A DNA stretch of 18,138 nucleotides, taken from the IMG/VR virus record IMGVR_UViG_648276671_000016; one strand, written 5' to 3'. The stretch is from a virus. Its lineage: Duplodnaviria > Heunggongvirae > Uroviricota > Caudoviricetes. Made by a program: the position numbers and the translations under genes. Below the pieces are notes generated by a model. It did no database searches, was not told where the DNA came from, and saw only the letters and a list, made by a program, of their open reading frames with translations. Below are positions 1 through 6,439 of the stretch, one piece after another (the stretch's first letter is position 1; the number at the start of each line of letters is the position of its first letter).

Positions 1-1143
1 CTATGCTGTTTTGATATCTACGATAACCCAGTCTTTACCACGATCATCATTGTATCGGTCGGTCATTTTTCTGGATTTATGGCCTAACAACTTTTGCGTA
101 TCCAGACCCTGTTCCCGATATAACCGTTCTGACAGAGATCGCTGCTCATGAAATGTGGGCGCAGTTCCTTGCTCCCATTTTATGCCACATTTTTCCCTGG
201 CCTTTTTAAAAGCCGTTGTCAGAGTATTTGCAGAAACCTGGTCTCCTCTGTTTGCTTGAGAGGTAGTGTGACGGTAATGGACCAGATATTTACTAACAAC
301 AGCATCCCTGCACTGAGATATAACTTCACGAAGGGTAATATTCAGAGCATCGCATTTCAGGTTAAGCGGAATAGCAAGTTTTGAACCGGTTTTTTCCTGA
401 GTAATGTGCAACATGTCGTCCCATATATCAGAGAATTTCAAATTGCAGATATCGCCTAAACGTTGTCCAGTGACAAGAGCAAGTAGCATCCCGCATTTTA
501 AATAGGGCTGCCGTCTGCTTACGCTGTCAAATATTGCCTGCCATTCGGGCAGTGATAATCTTTGGCGGTTTACTCGATTTCGCGGTTGTTTTGTTGCCTG
601 CGCTGGGTTAAATCCTGGCGGAACATGTCCTGCGTGTTGTGCTTCTTTGAAGACGTCGATTAACACCATTCTCACGACTTGCGCCATCCTGTTATGACCT
701 TCAGCCTTTACAGCATCAATTATTTCGGCAATATCAAGTGCGGTAATATCCTTGAGGTGTTGCATTCCACAATGCTCACGGAAAAGACGAATGGGTTTGC
801 CTTTTTGCCGATAGGAGTTGGGTCTTAGTTCATTATGTTGCAGCCTGTCCTCCTGGATAGAAATATATTTATCAAGCCATTCTGTCACCGTAATGTCTGA
901 GCGCCTGCCTTTCATTCTTTCCAGACGCTCATTGACGCTTAATATTTGTCGGGTACGTTGTTCAGCAATAATGGTATTTGCTTCAGTAGCAACTTGTTTT
1001 GCTTCATTCTCATCAGTTCCTAAGCTATGAAAACGACCGGATAGTGGATGTTTGTATTGCCAATATACCTTTCCGGTTCGCTTATCTAATTTGCAATATA
1101 AATTGGGTATAGAGATTTTGTGAGATCGGGGTCTAGCAGCCAT
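1..1143 (-). CDS. int: Tyrosine-type site-specific integrase (lambda-family phage integrase)
   Basis: 380-aa ORF. N-terminal RPRSH...PNLY and C-terminal HEQRSLSERLY / LLGHKS...MTDRYNDDRG parallel lambda Int (HELRSLSARLY, LLGHKSDTMASQYRDDRG) but the protein is clearly not lambda Int. Stop codon sits at nt 1-3; start overlaps xis by 11 nt. Confidence 0.9.
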   Translation of the reverse strand: MAARPRSHKISIPNLYCKLDKRTGKVYWQYKHPLSGRFHSLGTDENEAKQVATEANTIIAEQRTRQILSVNERLERMKGRRSDITVTEWLDKYISIQEDRLQHNELRPNSYRQKGKPIRLFREHCGMQHLKDITALDIAEIIDAVKAEGHNRMAQVVRMVLIDVFKEAQHAGHVPPGFNPAQATKQPRNRVNRQRLSLPEWQAIFDSVSRRQPYLKCGMLLALVTGQRLGDICNLKFSDIWDDMLHITQEKTGSKLAIPLNLKCDALNITLREVISQCRDAVVSKYLVHYRHTTSQANRGDQVSANTLTTAFKKAREKCGIKWEQGTAPTFHEQRSLSERLYREQGLDTQKLLGHKSRKMTDRYNDDRGKDWVIVDIKTA

Positions 1144-1369
1144 CAGCGATTATCCGTTGGAGTTTTGGGTTTGCGTTTATTGGGAGTTGCGGTTCTGCAA
1201 GCGTTCCTACAAAACGGGAATTTCGGTCAATCATCCAGTAGCGACCAACTTTTATAGCGGGTGGGGCCATCATTTTCCCTTGCGCGTATTTTTTCAGAAC
1301 TCGCTCACTTGGTGCTAAGTCCCCAAATTCTTCTTTAGCCCAGTCCTGTAAAGTGATTAGTCGAGACAT
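1133..1369 (-). CDS. xis: Excisionase (Xis-like winged-helix protein)
   Basis: 78-aa ORF immediately upstream of and overlapping int. N-terminal LITLQDWAKEE resembles lambda Xis LTLQEWNARQ. Strong RBS (AGAGGAGGACAA then ATG) on the minus strand. Confidence 0.7.
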   Translation of the reverse strand: MSRLITLQDWAKEEFGDLAPSERVLKKYAQGKMMAPPAIKVGRYWMIDRNSRFVGTLAEPQLPINANPKLQRIIADGC

Positions 1370-1508
1370 TTGTCCTCCTCTTAGCTGCTGAGGGAGTTTG
1401 TGACCGATATATCTGACATGATATTAAGCTCATGGCAGGTACATCTCTTGACTGGTCATAGAGATAAATTTAATGCTGAGAAATGCAGTATTGAATTTAT
1501 CAATTTTT

Positions 1509-1748
1509 CTATTTCCTGCGTATGGCACGTAACTTCTTAATGTGTTCTGCTGTATCGATCTCTTCGGCTATCCGATCTGCATCAGCTTTATTCACAGGTT
1601 CAAAGTCATGATTAAAGCGGAACATGCTGGCGATACATGTTCTGCCTTTTCGGATGTAGTGAACTTTGTTGTGGGTAGAACGCAGGATTTTGCAGGGAGT
1701 TCCGTGGTGGTCGACGTACCAGGTGTTAGGAAAAATGATTCTGAACAT
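1509..1748 (-). CDS. Hypothetical small phage protein (in the ea8.5 position of the exo-xis region)
   Basis: 79-aa ORF with good RBS (GAGGTG, 5-nt spacer). Co-oriented with the leftward early operon. Cys/His-rich N-terminal half (HHGTPC...H...H...C); not confidently assignable to a family. Confidence 0.5.
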   Translation of the reverse strand: MFRIIFPNTWYVDHHGTPCKILRSTHNKVHYIRKGRTCIASMFRFNHDFEPVNKADADRIAEEIDTAEHIKKLRAIRRK

Positions 1749-1795
1749 TTTTACACCTCAGTTGGACGATGTTGAAATTTGCTGCTTTGAGGCCA

Positions 1796-2014
1796 TCACA
1801 GTCCCCATTGTTTGTTCTTAAGTTCGATCTCCTCCTGGCAACTTGCACAAGTCCGACAACCCTGAACGGCCAGGCGTCTTCGCTCATCTATGGGATCGCC
1901 ACACTCACAACAATGAGTGGCAGATATAGCCAGGTGGTTCAGGCGGCGCATTTTTATTGCTGTGTTGCGCTGTAACTCTTCAATTTCTGATGCTGAATCA
2001 ATGATGTCTGCCAT
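1796..2014 (-). CDS. TraR/DksA-family C4-type zinc-finger protein
   Basis: 72-aa ORF containing CCEC...(14)...CRTCASC, the paired CxxC arrangement typical of phage/plasmid TraR-like proteins. Sits in the exo-xis region of the leftward operon. Confidence 0.75.
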   Translation of the reverse strand: MADIIDSASEIEELQRNTAIKMRRLNHLAISATHCCECGDPIDERRRLAVQGCRTCASCQEEIELKNKQWGL

Positions 2015-2062
2015 CTTCCATTAATCCCTGAATTGTTGGTTAATACGCTTGAGGGTGAATGC

Positions 2063-2090
2063 GAATAATAAAAAAGGAGCCTGTAGCTCC
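2063..2090 (-). terminator. Intrinsic terminator inside the leftward early operon
   Basis: Minus-strand transcript reads GGAGC-UACAG-GCUCC followed by UUUUUUAUUAUU (plus-strand stem halves at 2076-2080 and 2086-2090, A-run 2070-2075). Lies between the orf61-like and TraR-like genes. Confidence 0.4.
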
Positions 2091-2112
2091 CTGATGATTT
2101 TGCTTTTCATGT

Positions 2113-2328
2113 TCACCGTTCCTTAAAGACGCCGTTTAACATACCGATTGCCAGACCTAAGTGAGTCGGTGTGAATCCCATCAGCGTTACCGTTTCGCGG
2201 TGCTTCTTCAGTACGCTACGGCAAATGTCATCGACGTTTTTATCCGGAAACTGCTGTCTGGCTTTTTTGATTTCAGAATTAGCCTGACGGGCAATACTGC
2301 GAAGGGCGTTTTCTTGCTGAGGTGTCAT
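2113..2328 (-). CDS. Small exo-xis region protein (lambda orf61-like)
   Basis: ORF track gives 93 aa from a Met at 2394; I prefer the internal Met (MTPQQENALRSIARQ..., 71 aa) from position and recalled similarity to lambda orf61. Start choice is uncertain. Confidence 0.5.
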   Translation of the reverse strand: MTPQQENALRSIARQANSEIKKARQQFPDKNVDDICRSVLKKHRETVTLMGFTPTHLGLAIGMLNGVFKER

Positions 2329-2404
2329 TGAACAAGTCCCATGTCGGCAAGCATAAGCACACAGAATATGAAGCCCGCTGCCAGAAAAATGCATTCAGTG
2401 GTTG

Positions 2405-2596
2405 TCATACCTGGTCTCTCTCATCTGCTTCTGCTTTCGCCACCATCATTTCCAGCTTTTGTGAAAGGGATGTGGCTAACGTATGAAACTCTTCGTCTGT
2501 TTCTGCTGGTATTGGCACAAACCTGACTCCAATTTGAGCAAGGCTATGTGCCATCTCAATGCTCGTTCTTAACTCAACAGGAGATGCTTTGTGCAT
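2405..2596 (-). CDS. Small exo-xis region protein (lambda orf63-like)
   Basis: 63-aa ORF ([23 protein letters not shown]...) co-oriented between the orf61-like gene and orf60a/exo. Size and sequence match my recollection of lambda orf63. Confidence 0.55.
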   Translation of the reverse strand: MHKASPVELRTSIEMAHSLAQIGVRFVPIPAETDEEFHTLATSLSQKLEMMVAKAEADERDQV

Positions 2597-2757
2597 ACAG
2601 CCCCTCGTTTATTATTTATCTCCTCAGCCAGCCGCTGGGCTTTCAGTGGATTTTGGATAACAGAAAGGCCGGGAAATAGCCAGCCTCGCTTTGTAACGGA
2701 GTAGACGAAAGTGATCGCACCTACCCGGATATTATCGTGAGGATGCTTCATCGCCAT
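2569..2757 (-). CDS. Small exo-xis region protein (lambda orf60a-like)
   Basis: 62-aa ORF ([26 protein letters not shown]...) starting 10 nt inside the 3' end of exo. Matches my recollection of lambda orf60a. Confidence 0.55.
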
Positions 2758-3428
2758 TGCTCCCCAAATACAAAACCAATTTCAGCCAGTGCCTCGTCCA
2801 TTTTTTCGATGAACTCCGGCACCATCTCGTCAAAACTCGCCATGTAATTTTCATCCCGCTCAACCACGACATAATGCAGGCCTTCACGCTTCATTCGTGG
2901 GTCATAGTTGGCAAAGTACCAGGCATCTTTTCGTGTCACCCACATGCTGTACTGCACCTGGGCCATGTAAGCCGACTTTATGGCCTCGAAACCACCGAGC
3001 CGGAACTTCATGAAATCCCTGGAGGTAAACGGGCATTTCAGCTCAAGGCCATTGCCGTCACTGCATAAACCATCTGGAGAGCAGGCGGTACGCATACTTT
3101 CGTCGCGATAGATGATCGGGGATTCAATAACATTCACGCCGGAAGTGAACTCAAACAGGGTTCTGGCGTCGTTCTCGTACTGTTTTCCCCAGGCCAGTGC
3201 TTTAGCGTTAACTTCCGGAGCCACACCGGTGCAAACCTCGGCAAGCAGGGTGTGGAAGTAGGACATTTTCATGTCAGGCCACTTCTTTCCGGAGCGGGGT
3301 TTTGCTATCACGTTGTGAACTTCTGAAGCGGTGATGACGCCGAGCCGTAATTTGTGCCACGCATCATCCCCCTGTTCGACAGCTCTCACATCGATCCCGG
3401 TACGCTGCAGGATAATGTCCGGTGTCAT
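2748..3428 (-). CDS. exo: Lambda-type 5'-3' exonuclease (Red alpha)
   Basis: 226-aa translation ([40 protein letters not shown]...GEQWR) matches phage lambda Exo over its full length from memory. ATGA overlap with bet stop. Confidence 0.95.
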
Positions 3429-4210
3429 GCTGCCACCTTCTGCTCTGCGGCTTTCTGTTTCAGGAATCCAAGAGCTTTTACTGCTTCGGCCTGTGTCAGT
3501 TCTGACGATGCACGAATGTCGCGGCGAAATATCTGGGAACAGAGTGGCAATAAGTCGTCATCCCATGTTTTATCCAGGGCGATCAGCAGAGTGTTAATCT
3601 CCTGCATGGTTTCATCGTTAACCGGAGTGATGTCGCGTTCCGGCTGGCGTTCTGCAGTGTATGCAGTATTTTCGACAATGCGCTCGGCTTCATCCTTGTC
3701 ATAGATACCAGCAAATCCGAAGGCCAGACGGGCACACTGAATCATGGCTTTATGCCGTAACATTCGTTTGGGATGCGACTGCCACGGCCCCGTGATTTCT
3801 CTGCCTTCGCGGGTTTTGAATGGTTCGCGGCGGCATTCATCCATCCATTCGGTAACGCAGATCGGATGATTACGGTCCTTGCGGTAAATCCGGCATGTAC
3901 AGGATTCATTGTCCTGCTCAAAGTCCATGCCATCAAACTGCTGGTTTTCATTGATGATGCGGGACCAGCCATCAACGCCCACCACCGGAACGATGCCGTT
4001 CTGCTTATCAGGGAAGGCGTAAATTTCTTTCGTCCACGGATTAAGGCCGTATTGGTTGGCGACGATCAGCAATGCGATGAACTGCGCATCGCTGGCATCA
4101 CCTTTAAATGCCGTCTGGCGAAGAGTGGTGATCAGTTCCTGTGGGTCGACAGAATCCATGCCGACACGTTCAGCCAGCTTCCCTGCCAGCGTTGCGAGTG
4201 CTGTACTCAT
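3425..4210 (-). CDS. bet: Lambda-type single-strand annealing protein (Red beta)
   Basis: 261-aa translation ([66 protein letters not shown]...) matches lambda Bet end to end from memory. Confidence 0.95.
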
Positions 4211-4215
4211 CCGTT

Positions 4216-4512
4216 TTATACCTCTGAATCAATATCAACCTGGTGGTGAGCAATGGTTTCAACCATGTACCGGATGTGTTCTGCCATGCGCTCCTGAAAC
4301 TCAACATCGTCATCAAACGCACGGGTAATGGCTTTTTTGCTGGCCCCGTGGCGTTGCAAATGATCGATGCATAGCGATTCAAACAGGTGCTGGGGCAGGC
4401 CTTTTTCCATGTCGTCTGCCAGTTCTGCCTCTTTCTCTTCACGGGCGATCTGCTGGTAGTGACGCGCCCAGCTCTGAGCCTCAAGACGATCCTGAATGTA
4501 ATAAGCGTTCAT
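4216..4512 (-). CDS. gam: Gam, RecBCD inhibitor (short GamS-length form)
   Basis: 98-aa [24 protein letters not shown]...VDIDSEV corresponds to the lambda GamS portion. The in-frame upstream sequence has no start codon before a stop at 4567-4569. Confidence 0.9.
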
Positions 4513-4587
4513 GGCTGAACTCCTGAAAATGGCTGTGAAAATATCGCCCGCGAAATGCCAGGCTGATTAGGAAAACAGGAAAGGGGA

Positions 4588-4878
4588 TTAGCGATTCAGG
4601 CCGTTACCGCGTCCGTCGAGAAAAACTTCCACGAGCAAATCACGGGTATAAGTGCGCTCGATGCCGCGATGCAGATAAAGCCGTCCGCGTAAATTAGCTG
4701 ATGCAGTCCAGGTACCATCTTTGTGTTTGACCAGCATTCCTGGCATGACCGCACCTCGATTAACGGTCTGCGTTCCGTAATGTTGATGAACCATAAAAAC
4801 TCCTGCCCGTAAGCTGGGCTGCTGAACATATAGAGACTTCTGCGCGTATTCAGGCGGTGGATGGCCGCCGGTTGTCAT
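4588..4878 (-). CDS. Hypothetical protein, first gene downstream of the putative pL/OL region (N position)
   Basis: Open frame 4588-4998. The only ATG with an upstream GAGG is at 4878 (96 aa, [20 protein letters not shown]...). The 136-aa form begins at a TTG with no SD. Composition is Trp/Tyr/His/Val-containing and looks like a folded protein, unlike the disordered lambda N. Confidence 0.4.
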
Positions 4879-5035
4879 AACTAAGTCGCCTCGTTGAAGC
4901 GACTGAGGTATGAAGTGTTGAGTTGATTTCAGCTGGTCACACCGACGTTCACGCGTCCGCTTCACCCCTCGCACTCCCCGGAGCCTGCTGAAATTCAAGC
5001 TGCGGATCTAAGCGGTCATCGCAACGGTGAATCAG

Positions 5036-5150
5036 GTGGTTGCCGTATCGTTGTGTTGTTGCGATGAACTTATTTAAAACTATAGTTGTTTTATCGTCAA
5101 CAACAATAGTTGTTTTATTGGTTGTTTTAGATATAACTGGTTGTATTTAG
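5036..5150. promoter_or_regulatory. Putative OL operator cluster and leftward promoter
   Basis: Dense GTTGTT/AACAAC repeats, including the perfect inverted repeat AACAAC-AATA-GTTGTT at 5099-5114 and GTTGTT-N8-AACAAC at 5085-5104. Same half-site as the OR palindrome. A minus-strand -35 TTGACG (5095-5100) and -10 TTAAAT (5072-5077) are plausible. Confidence 0.45.
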
Positions 5151-5240
5151 GATGGATTTATTTTGTGACTTGAATCGCATAGCGATAACTGAAGCGAGGT
5201 TATGGTGGTTTTTTTAACGGTGTGTGTGATGAGGGGAGGG

Positions 5241-5268
5241 CAAAAGAAAACCCGGCACGGTGACCGGG
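5241..5268 (-). terminator. Intrinsic terminator downstream of the repressor gene
   Basis: Plus-strand CCCGG (5251-5255) and CCGGG (5264-5268) form a GC stem. On the minus strand it is followed by UUUUCUUUUG (plus 5241-5250). About 120 nt beyond the cI stop. Confidence 0.5.
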
Positions 5269-5389
5269 ATTCTTACGCCGTTAGGTAAAGATATTATTGC
5301 GGTGGCTTAATATTACTACCTAGAGCAAAGATAGGAATTAGTTCTTTACTGAATGAGCACAATGCCCAGTTGATAATTTTTAATTGGTA

Positions 5390-6079
5390 CTACCCATGCT
5401 TCCTATATGTCTGCGGCATGCTCCCAATAACCTTACCGAAGATGAACACCCGGTTCATCTCGTCTTTCTCGATCGGGTCCCACGGTGAGTAGCTTTTGTT
5501 ATCAGAGATGACCAGCAGCTTATCCTTCATCATTTGCAGGCGCTTTACATGGGCTGTGTCGTCGTACAGAAACGCATAGATACCATCACCGTCGAAAGAT
5601 TTAACTGTGATATCAACGAACAGCAGATCACCTGGTTCGATCGTTCCTGACATGCTGTCACCACGCACGTTAATGATGCGGATATTTTCCGCCTTCCTAC
5701 CATCGAACATGTGACGAGCATCGTCAAACGAGTACTCAACCGAGCGTAGAACTTCTACAAACTCACGGTTGATGACTCCCGGCCCAGCACTGACTTCTAT
5801 ATCAAGAACGTCAATCTTGAAGTATTTGGAATGGCTGACAGTTGATTGTATTGGTTGCACTGTACTGTCTGACATATTTCCAACGCCAGAAGATAACCAT
5901 TCTGCGCGCACACCCAAAGCGTTCGCGATCTCCACGATTTTAGTTGTTTGATTAGCTTTCCCTGTTTCGATTTTCTGAATAGCAGCTTGGCTAACCCCGA
6001 CCAAATCCCCAAGCGCCTTTTGTGTAAGGCCTCGCGCTAATCTGGCTTCTTTAAGTCTTTCTGAGAGTGTTGTTTTCAT
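5390..6079 (-). CDS. cI: CI-type prophage repressor (XRE HTH plus S24 LexA-like peptidase domain)
   Basis: N-terminal HTH (LSERLKEARLARGLTQKALGDLVGVSQAAIQKIETG). C-terminal autocleavage domain with Ser in VRGDSMSGTIEPGDLLFVD and Lys in HVKRL. I start at the internal Met at 6079; the 6145 ATG of the ORF track lies inside the operator palindrome. Confidence 0.85.
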   Translation of the reverse strand: MKTTLSERLKEARLARGLTQKALGDLVGVSQAAIQKIETGKANQTTKIVEIANALGVRAEWLSSGVGNMSDSTVQPIQSTVSHSKYFKIDVLDIEVSAGPGVINREFVEVLRSVEYSFDDARHMFDGRKAENIRIINVRGDSMSGTIEPGDLLFVDITVKSFDGDGIYAFLYDDTAHVKRLQMMKDKLLVISDNKSYSPWDPIEKDEMNRVFIFGKVIGSMPQTYRKHG

Positions 6080-6426: not shown

Positions 6427-6439
6427 CGCTCTTTAACAA
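6427..6439 (+). promoter_or_regulatory. boxA-like element (candidate nutR component)
   Basis: CGCTCTTTAACAA lies 13 nt after the cro stop, a near-perfect match to the boxA consensus (lambda CGCTCTTA; rrn TGCTCTTTAACAA). No convincing GC-rich boxB hairpin follows within 40 nt. Confidence 0.35.

Follow-up and report, generated by a model that had tools for sequence, protein, structure and literature searches.

The 18,138-nt stretch of tailed-phage DNA analyzed here (IMG/VR record IMGVR_UViG_648276671_000016, Caudoviricetes; hereafter the window) carries at positions 1509-2757, between its exo and xis genes, what is very probably the canonical exo-xis segment of the leftward early operon of a lambda-like prophage. 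In this reading, the TraR-like gene of the segment is orf73, whose product would restrain host ribosome production; a hairpin between orf61 and orf73, known as t2, would lower transcription into the genes that follow; and a neighboring gene of the DUF4222 family most likely encodes a small host-directed regulator. The segment is real, and an initial annotation made from the letters alone located it correctly and named it broadly correctly, but its content is ordinary and largely described already. What we add is modest: t2 appears to be a selected hairpin within a conserved, translationally coupled mini-frame derived from orf61, and this holds for lambda as much as for the window.

The initial annotation counted five small co-oriented open reading frames (ORFs) between xis and exo, and all five are present at the positions claimed for them, on the minus strand, which is the coding strand for all genes of window 1-4600 (Table 1). 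The count missed a sixth, the ORF that contains the terminator. The order of transcription is exo, orf60a (with a tL3-type hairpin inside it), orf63, an intact orf61, a 29-31-codon ORF carrying t2, orf73, the DUF4222 gene, xis and int. As had been proposed, three of the ORFs are homologues of lambda orf60a (95% identity), orf63 (92%) and orf61 (96-98%) by BLASTP. The conserved lambdoid exo-xis block has been defined as orf60a-orf63-orf61-orf73-ea22 (PMC8614690), and the first four of these genes occur in canonical order downstream of exo; ea22 does not follow orf73, as BLASTP detected no similarity to Ea22 anywhere in 1370-1800, and the DUF4222 gene stands there instead. Both the TraR homology and the conservation of the small ORFs, on which the proposal depended, are strong.

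Lambda positions 30418-33193 align with window 1819-4594 at 97.5% nucleotide identity with one indel (blastn). Lambda and the window agree in gene order, strand and sequence over the stretch that starts with exo and takes in most of orf73, and they have in common the hairpins tL3/t1 and t2 as well as the 31-codon ORF intervening between orf61 and orf73. The similarity ends at window 1819, in the 3'-terminal part of the gene for the 72-aa protein. Left of this point lies an int-xis module other than lambda's, and because phage 4A7 has the same integrase adjoining an icd fragment, we assign the module to the phage-21/e14 type. The window is a lambda-type recombination arm (exo to orf73) joined within the 3' end of orf73 to a phage-21/icd-type int-xis module; it is without the ea22, ea8.5 and orf55 genes of lambda and has the single DUF4222 gene in their place. 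Phages Perceval, 4A7, 1W, 3W and others match the whole of window 1370-2760 at 96-98% identity, and this block is present in 3423 of 5426 complete E. coli genomes, with at least 80% coverage in 1527 of them. The block is textbook lambdoid gene content, one more copy among thousands of E. coli genomes.

The TraR-like assignment of the 72-aa protein is borne out by Pfam zf-dskA_traR (PF01258; 35.2 bits against a cut-off of 24.9), by phrog_54 (2.8e-25) and by matches to the structures 5w1s (6.5e-5) and 6n57, which are TraR chains in polymerase complexes. Its assignment to the ea22/ea8.5 position, by contrast, has to be given up: judged by its sequence, the protein is lambda Orf73 itself, in orf73's own position. 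The lambda RefSeq record leaves the orf61-ea22 interval without annotation, yet this interval holds a 73-aa ORF that is named orf73 in the literature. The window protein is 89% identical to lambda Orf73, from which it differs by eight substitutions, mostly C-terminal, and by being one residue shorter; its last ~10 residues differ from those of lambda because the mosaic joint falls at window 1819.

The family hallmarks are retained throughout. Residues D3, D6 and A8, forming the DxxDxA tip, are invariant in an alignment of the window protein, lambda Orf73 and F TraR, and across 12 divergent homologues D6 and A8 remain invariant while D3 is replaced by E in four. DxxDxA is the N-terminal acidic motif that reaches the polymerase active site (PMC9239242, PMC8614690). 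The zinc motif CxxC-x17-CxxC is kept, with C35, C38, C56 and C59 aligning with lambda Orf73 and F TraR (the first Cys lies one column later in F TraR). The ExxRL motif is as in lambda (E44-R-R-R47-L48), and E44, R46, R47 and the acidic residue E64 are conserved; an ExxR(K/L) motif and an acidic residue in the C-terminal helix are listed as family hallmarks (PMC8614690). F TraR belongs to the same length class and shares the tip, the four Cys positions with the one-residue shift, ExxR(L/K) and the C-terminal acidic residue, although it is only 32% identical to the window protein. From the 89% identity and the retention of all motifs, window Orf73 is predicted to bind the secondary channel of RNA polymerase with the activity of its lambda counterpart. 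Lambda Orf73 is a published, biochemically characterized TraR homologue that binds the secondary channel of RNA polymerase and acts on rrnB P1 without ppGpp: it competes with DksA for RNA polymerase, inhibits rrnB P1 (IC50, the half-maximal inhibitory concentration, about 50 nM) and rpsT P2, retards host growth when expressed from pL and gives a 3-4 fold higher phage yield (PMC9239242). The rRNA-promoter test suggested in the initial annotation for the TraR-like protein is therefore in essence published, because it has been done for this 89%-identical protein.

Just upstream of orf73, the terminator scan identified t2 on the minus strand as AGGGAGCU-ACA-GGCUCCUU at 2092-2074, followed by UUUUAUUAUU. 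The element has an 8-bp stem with four G-C pairs, a 3-nt loop and a U-run immediately after the stem, and a folding energy of -10.2 kcal/mol is predicted for its 41-nt context (z = -3.8), a stability that none of 200 shuffles equals. The hairpin and T-run of the internal terminator proposed earlier are thus present, but they lie within a conserved coding frame and not in a plain intergenic gap. In sequence and in its position between orf61 and orf73, the element is identical to the t2 of lambda and Phi24B. Bloch et al. (2014) predicted t2 in these two phages and invoked it for the lower mRNA of lambda orf73, ea22 and ea8.5, which lies below that of the upstream ORFs by quantitative reverse-transcription PCR (qRT-PCR; PMC4195576). 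In that work t2 was treated as intergenic and was represented by two identical sequences, whereas here it sits in a conserved coding frame and shows compensatory changes in divergent prophages.

A scan of viral contigs by Orf73 alignment was dropped because it returned only loci 94-99% identical, which are useless for covariation. A DNA-pattern scan anchored downstream of the hairpin instead gave 120 IMG/VR viral loci, to which 12 genome loci were added. In divergent loci the hairpin and T-run lie 57-60 nt before the ATG of the TraR-like gene, or one gene further upstream, and the stem sequences differ; among the 62 distinct 36-nt variants in this sample, the hairpin abuts the T-run in 61. Two stem classes differ by one loop nucleotide while remaining in frame, so that a single consensus structure is impossible, and the classes were aligned and pair-counted separately. 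In the window's class (alignment A7), to which sequences were assigned by predicted fold and register, a sorting that itself favors the structure, 88.6% of cells are paired and double-sided changes occur at four of the eight pairs; none of 500 shuffles reaches the observed values, and pairing is at most 64.7% once partner columns are slid. The second class, sorted in the same manner, is 93% paired and varies little. Compensatory changes across Enterobacteriaceae prophages preserve the t2 hairpin in these alignments, which is to say that it appears to be selected as RNA. Rfam searches returned nothing at gathering thresholds for the entire window, and chance-level eukaryotic matches only for 1300-2900.

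The frame that encloses t2 is 31 codons long if it starts at a GTG, which forms the overlap GTGA with the stop of orf61, and 29 codons long if it starts at the ATG at 2110; it encodes the peptide MNMKSKIIRELQAPFLLFAFTLKRINQQFRD. The whole of t2 lies inside this frame, which ends 6 nt upstream of the orf73 ATG. Lambda has the same 31-aa ORF, at its positions 30619-30714, with an ATGA start, and a 29-aa hypothetical protein is annotated here in phages 4A7, SfI and PhiR47_2 (29-31 aa across phage records). In all 12 independently found genome loci, the frame runs over hairpin and T-run, which lie entirely within it, 18-24 nt after the start codon, and the consensus peptide is M..(L/I)I(T/I)R(E/S)L..PFLL.AFT..RIN.QFR(E/D). 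The start overlaps the stop of the upstream gene as ATGA in most loci examined, behind five different upstream C-termini, and across loci 1-6 nt separate the stop from the next ATG. Over the 13 codons that follow the T-run, pS is 0.2-1.0 against a pN of 0-0.34 (pN/pS about 0.2-0.3). The codons of the stem alter residues (RELQA, RSLSR, KGLGV), yet the base pairing is retained. Together, these features point to a frame that is under purifying selection as protein and coupled at both ends. According to a review (PMC8614690), ribosome profiling of lambda detected a 31-aa peptide here, which is equated with 'orf2313' or 'orf2311' by length and location only.

The origin of this mini-frame can be read from its relatives. 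Homology links the small ORF to the C-terminal ~30 residues of proteins in the Orf61 family. A full-length 71-aa Orf61 homologue (phrog_303, 3.7e-25) at locus L021 (1503-1715) ends with the small-ORF sequence and has the hairpin in its 3' end. Upstream of the TraR-like gene, loci L012 and L013 have an Orf61-like N-terminus (MTPDTENAS...) that runs straight into the small-ORF sequence, in what looks like an internal deletion. On the simplest reading, the mini-gene would be the 3' fragment of an orf61 allele, retained because it carries the terminator and the coupling signals.

The 79-aa product of the gene that follows orf73 scores 69.8 bits against Pfam PF13973 (DUF4222; gathering score 27) over residues 3-53, matches phrog_285 (2e-36) and has 105 homologues in Enterobacteriaceae, among them Escherichia, Salmonella, Citrobacter, Enterobacter and related genera. 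An AlphaFold2 model built from a 28-sequence alignment (mean pLDDT 81) combines five short strands with a short helix and, at the C-terminus, a long one, and Foldseek relates it weakly (E around 1e-2 to 1e-3) to small beta-barrels of the PWWP, KOW, SH3 and Tudor types. The predicted fold is accordingly described as an SH3-like five-strand barrel with a C-terminal helix. The only DUF4222 protein studied is RgdR (ECs1581) of the Sp7/CP-933C prophage of enterohemorrhagic E. coli (EHEC) O157:H7 (PMC3378721), which activates LEE1 and the type III secretion system, represses motility and binds DNA weakly and non-specifically (PMC3378721, PMC10877973). The effects on LEE1, secretion and motility are known from RgdR and close orthologues of it alone (PMC3378721). 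Against DUF4222, RgdR reaches 82 bits; its identity to the 79-aa protein is 30% over 47 residues, and both proteins are small, basic and prophage-encoded. RgdR, however, has 99 residues, and its gene lies beside a primase gene in a P4-like element and not in a lambdoid exo-xis region. The RGD tripeptide, which is important for RgdR activity, is absent from the entire 79-aa sequence: alignments start after RgdR residue 20, and a gapless extension sets N8-T9-W10 against R20-G21-D22. Judging from family membership and fold, the window protein most likely acts, like RgdR, as a small host-directed regulator through nucleic-acid or protein binding.

The DUF4222 gene recurs next to the TraR-like gene. 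Of 17 loci from different species found via the DUF4222 protein, 16 carry upstream, in the same orientation and at varying spacing, a gene for an Orf73-like protein (47-99% identical), and in a Klebsiella phage the two genes overlap start to stop. In viral contigs found via the small ORF, the TraR-like gene is downstream in 117 of 120, and a DUF4222 gene follows 0.2-1.9 kb further on in at least 80 of the 120. Two phage records bear on these genes in other ways. A protein of phage D2 annotated as 'Ea22 protein' (P0099, 95 aa, with an Ead/Ea22 Pfam domain) is 97% identical to 46% of the window DUF4222 protein, which suggests that in some phages a recombinant joint lies between ea22-type and DUF4222-type genes. 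The record of phage PhiR47_2 (PV340567.1) has at 1529-1904 two plus-strand hypothetical ORFs annotated opposite the minus-strand DUF4222 and Orf73 genes, probably a mis-annotation.

Taken together with the published work, these features suggest how the segment would act. Orf73 would enter the secondary channel of RNA polymerase and mimic DksA plus ppGpp, shutting down rRNA and ribosomal-protein promoters, slowing host growth and raising phage yield. We infer termination at t2, which would lower transcription into the distal genes orf73, DUF4222, xis and int and would fit the mRNA drop published for lambda. Exo-xis genes are known to shift lysogeny and induction behavior (PMC3824215, PMC4195576). 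Leftward transcription would begin at a pL-like promoter/operator cluster at about 5060-5130 (promoter about 5060-5100), which has repeated ACAACTAT-type operators. In the leader region, no match to HK022 was found when a put-type element was sought, and no boxB accompanies the boxA-like sequence. Elsewhere, an rrn-type boxA, CGCTCTTTAACAA, lies directly after cro (6427-6439, plus strand), without an obvious boxB. In the 136-aa kil-like ORF, the match to the Kil family is confined to residues 52-127, and the unmatched N-terminal part is arginine-rich (RGVKRTRERR).

Several observations weigh against this reading. An identical t2 in Phi24B is accompanied by no drop in downstream mRNA, and termination in lambda was deduced from qRT-PCR only (PMC4195576). 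Per-variant fold z-scores are modest, ranging from -1.0 to -3.8. TraR-like genes occur without hairpin or small ORF in loci L003, L004, L015 and L019 and in Klebsiella phages, where the gene is packed directly against the upstream gene, and the idea of a universal terminator was rejected on that ground. The functional data were obtained with lambda Orf73 and not with the window allele, so that activity here would follow by homology; the score against the TraR-family model NCBIfam TIGR02419 (54.9 bits) is below its cut-off of 59.7, and equivalog models fall far below theirs. The function proposed for the DUF4222 protein leans on 30% identity to one characterized protein of unclear mechanism. 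Finally, the interval from the pL-like promoter to the kil-like gene (window 4588-5390, minus strand) holds no N-type antiterminator gene, and lambda-style N read-through therefore cannot simply be assumed.

The mode of read-through allows a further proposal, in which t2 would be a translation-coupled attenuator. A ribosome passing from orf61 into the small ORF close behind the polymerase would melt t2, read-through would need translation, and the same ribosomes would then be handed to the orf73 start just beyond the small-ORF stop; because Orf73 lowers ribosome synthesis, a negative feedback loop would result. The containment of hairpin and T-run in the frame at all 12 genome loci, the overlap of its start, in most loci examined, with the upstream stop behind five different C-termini and the proximity of its stop to the next ATG, the purifying selection on the peptide, the pairing that survives changes in stem residues and the peptide reported from lambda all speak for such coupling. 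Conservation of the peptide may, however, be a legacy of its origin in the Orf61 C-terminus, and the final codons of the small ORF double as the orf73 Shine-Dalgarno sequence and would be constrained anyway; in lambda, N antitermination alone would account for read-through. In attenuation of the pyrBI type, a leader ORF spans the attenuator hairpin, and a closely coupled ribosome prevents termination. The window likewise has an intrinsic terminator-like element wholly inside a short, apparently translated frame just upstream of the gene to be regulated, but here the frame would be a relic of a gene's 3' end, coupled to both neighboring cistrons, and the attenuation is putative. We consider it a tentative idea, and rather an unlikely one, that t2 and its enclosing ORF form a conserved intercistronic connector of this kind, a translation-sensed attenuator gating both a ppGpp/DksA mimic and the DUF4222-xis-int genes, with negative feedback, in lambda and many enterobacterial prophages.

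Other explanations would deprive t2 or its neighbors of the roles given to them above. The hairpin could be no terminator but a by-product of coding, its T-run being read as Pro-Phe-Leu-Leu, or an element of mRNA processing or stability. The T-run does encode conserved PFLL codons, several variants have modest fold z-scores, and Phi24B orf73 and ea22 mRNA is as high as that of N despite the identical hairpin (PMC4195576). Nevertheless, the stems (GGGAGC/GCUCCC, GGUCGC/GCGGCC, AAGGGAC/GUCCCUU, GCCUCU/AGAGGC) always pair, abut the T-run and cost amino-acid changes; the codons of the run stay T-rich even where the residues differ (LFFLL, PFYFL); and mRNA for the downstream genes is lower in lambda (PMC4195576), all of which makes this explanation improbable. 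We are equally doubtful that an internal sigma-70 promoter overlapping the hairpin, the p1 of Bloch et al., drives orf73 and the genes downstream independently of pL and so divides the region into two transcription units. BPROM predicts p1 in lambda and Phi24B, with -35 TCATCA and -10 TTTTATTAT, and in Phi24B treated with H2O2, induction of orf73 and ea22 exceeds that of the upstream ORFs (PMC4195576), but a consensus scan found no minus-strand promoter here at 9 or more of 12 matches, the best hexamers picked by hand reach 7 of 12 at 18-nt spacing, and the -35 region falls within the variable stem in divergent loci. A plus-strand promoter match at 2040-2069 is within chance expectation (2 found, 3.3 expected). 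That Ea22 and Ea8.5 have been replaced, unusually, by the TraR-like protein and a metal-binding Cys/His-rich one is very improbable. The initial annotation was right that the 79-aa protein is rich in these residues (2 Cys, 6 His) and that its gene stands where lambda has ea22, ea8.5 and orf55, but the TraR part of the idea is refuted by orf73 occupying its normal place, and a relationship to zinc fingers or Ea8.5 was rejected for the 79-aa protein. This protein has no sequence match at E<=1 to any solved structure, Ea8.5 (PDB 2M7A) included, and no BLASTP similarity to lambda Ea8.5, Ea22 or Orf55; its model is an all-beta barrel with a helix; and although C19, C38 and H69 are invariant in the close DUF4222 subfamily, C19 is not conserved in RgdR, with which only C38 is shared.

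Between exo and t2, the orf60a homologue matches Pfam PF07026 (DUF1317; 7.8e-40) and phrog_1998, and its 62-aa ORF corresponds to a lambda gene annotated as 60 aa from the second Met; the orf63 homologue matches PF07131 (DUF1382; 5.2e-30). For orf61, the two halves of the split lambda frame both match the window ORF. A nucleotide alignment places the difference in a T-run (window 2262-2267; lambda about 3363 of its stretch), which has six Ts in the window against seven in reference lambda. Because of the extra T, lambda orf61 falls into two parts, a 61-aa ORF that is annotated and a 60-aa frame that is not, and the window therefore carries an intact orf61, a form also known in Stx phages; the truncation of lambda Orf61 has already been remarked (PMC8614690). 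Phage 4A7 annotates orf61 as a 216-nt coding sequence of 71 aa starting MTPQQ, which equals the window ATG at 2328, and this ATG is the probable start of a 71-aa MTPQQ... product.

The coding frame of orf60a contains a hairpin of its own, t1, which we take to be lambda tL3. Lambda tL3 is carried on the Red plasmid pKD46. The window hairpin equals the t1 of Bloch et al. (PMC4195576) except for one base, G to C relative to lambda. For a common 51-nt context, the folding energies are -13.1 kcal/mol in the window and -18.5 kcal/mol in lambda, so that the change costs about 5 kcal/mol and weakens the tL3-equivalent hairpin relative to lambda.

Table 1. Features of the exo-xis segment and its flanks, with window positions
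Feature	Position	Strand	Basis
int	1-1143	minus	
xis, excisionase; flank of the block, phage-21/icd-type int-xis module	1133-1369	minus	Pfam Exc 6.7e-6; phrog_629 5.4e-36
79-aa DUF4222 (RgdR-family) ORF	1509-1748	minus	Pfam PF13973, phrog_285
72-aa orf73 homologue, TraR-like	1796-2014	minus	Pfam PF01258, phrog_54
31-codon small ORF enclosing the terminator-like element	2021-2116	minus	ORF list, conservation
t2 terminator-like element (stem-loop 2074-2092, U-run 2064-2073)	2064-2092	minus	
orf61, intact (maximal ORF 93 aa)	2113-2394	minus	phrog_303 2.1e-42
orf63 homologue, 63 aa, Pfam DUF1382	2405-2596	minus	
orf60a homologue, 62-aa ORF, Pfam DUF1317	2569-2757	minus	
tL3/t1-equivalent hairpin, within the orf60a coding frame	2665-2687	minus	terminator scan
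exo (lambda exonuclease), flank of the block	2748-3428	minus	97.8% identity to lambda Exo; Pfam YqaJ
bet, gam	beyond 3428	minus	

Further features of the window lie outside these genes. The gap that separates the DUF4222 stop from the xis start has, at 1463-1501 on the plus strand, an AT-rich inverted repeat (16-bp stem) followed by AATTTTTCTATTT. As plus-strand RNA the repeat folds at -18.0 kcal/mol (z = -3.9) against -8.8 kcal/mol as minus-strand RNA, being more stable on the plus strand because of G-U pairs; it resembles a terminator of transcription running antisense to the early-left operon, or else a palindrome of the phage-21-type int-xis module to which a protein would bind. The joint of the mosaic against other phages falls at about 1519-1522. 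Two cargo genes stand on the right of the replication genes O and P: one encodes a 1157-aa inverse autotransporter (9081-12554, plus strand) with an intimin/invasin-type beta-domain and Ig-like repeats, the other a 347-aa alpha/beta-hydrolase (BD-FAE/esterase; 12586-13629, minus strand).

Published work has left unexplained why orf73 and the later genes are expressed unlike the upstream exo-xis genes, and differently in lambda and in Stx phages that have an identical terminator. A selected hairpin within an apparently translated, doubly coupled mini-frame offers a concrete hypothesis for how a host-shutoff factor, xis and int may be gated. If it is correct, the connector could be the main expression route for the far leftward operon in phages without an evident N gene. 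The recurrent pairing of TraR-like and DUF4222 genes, in turn, singles out an uncharacterized small protein that may cooperate in host reprogramming.

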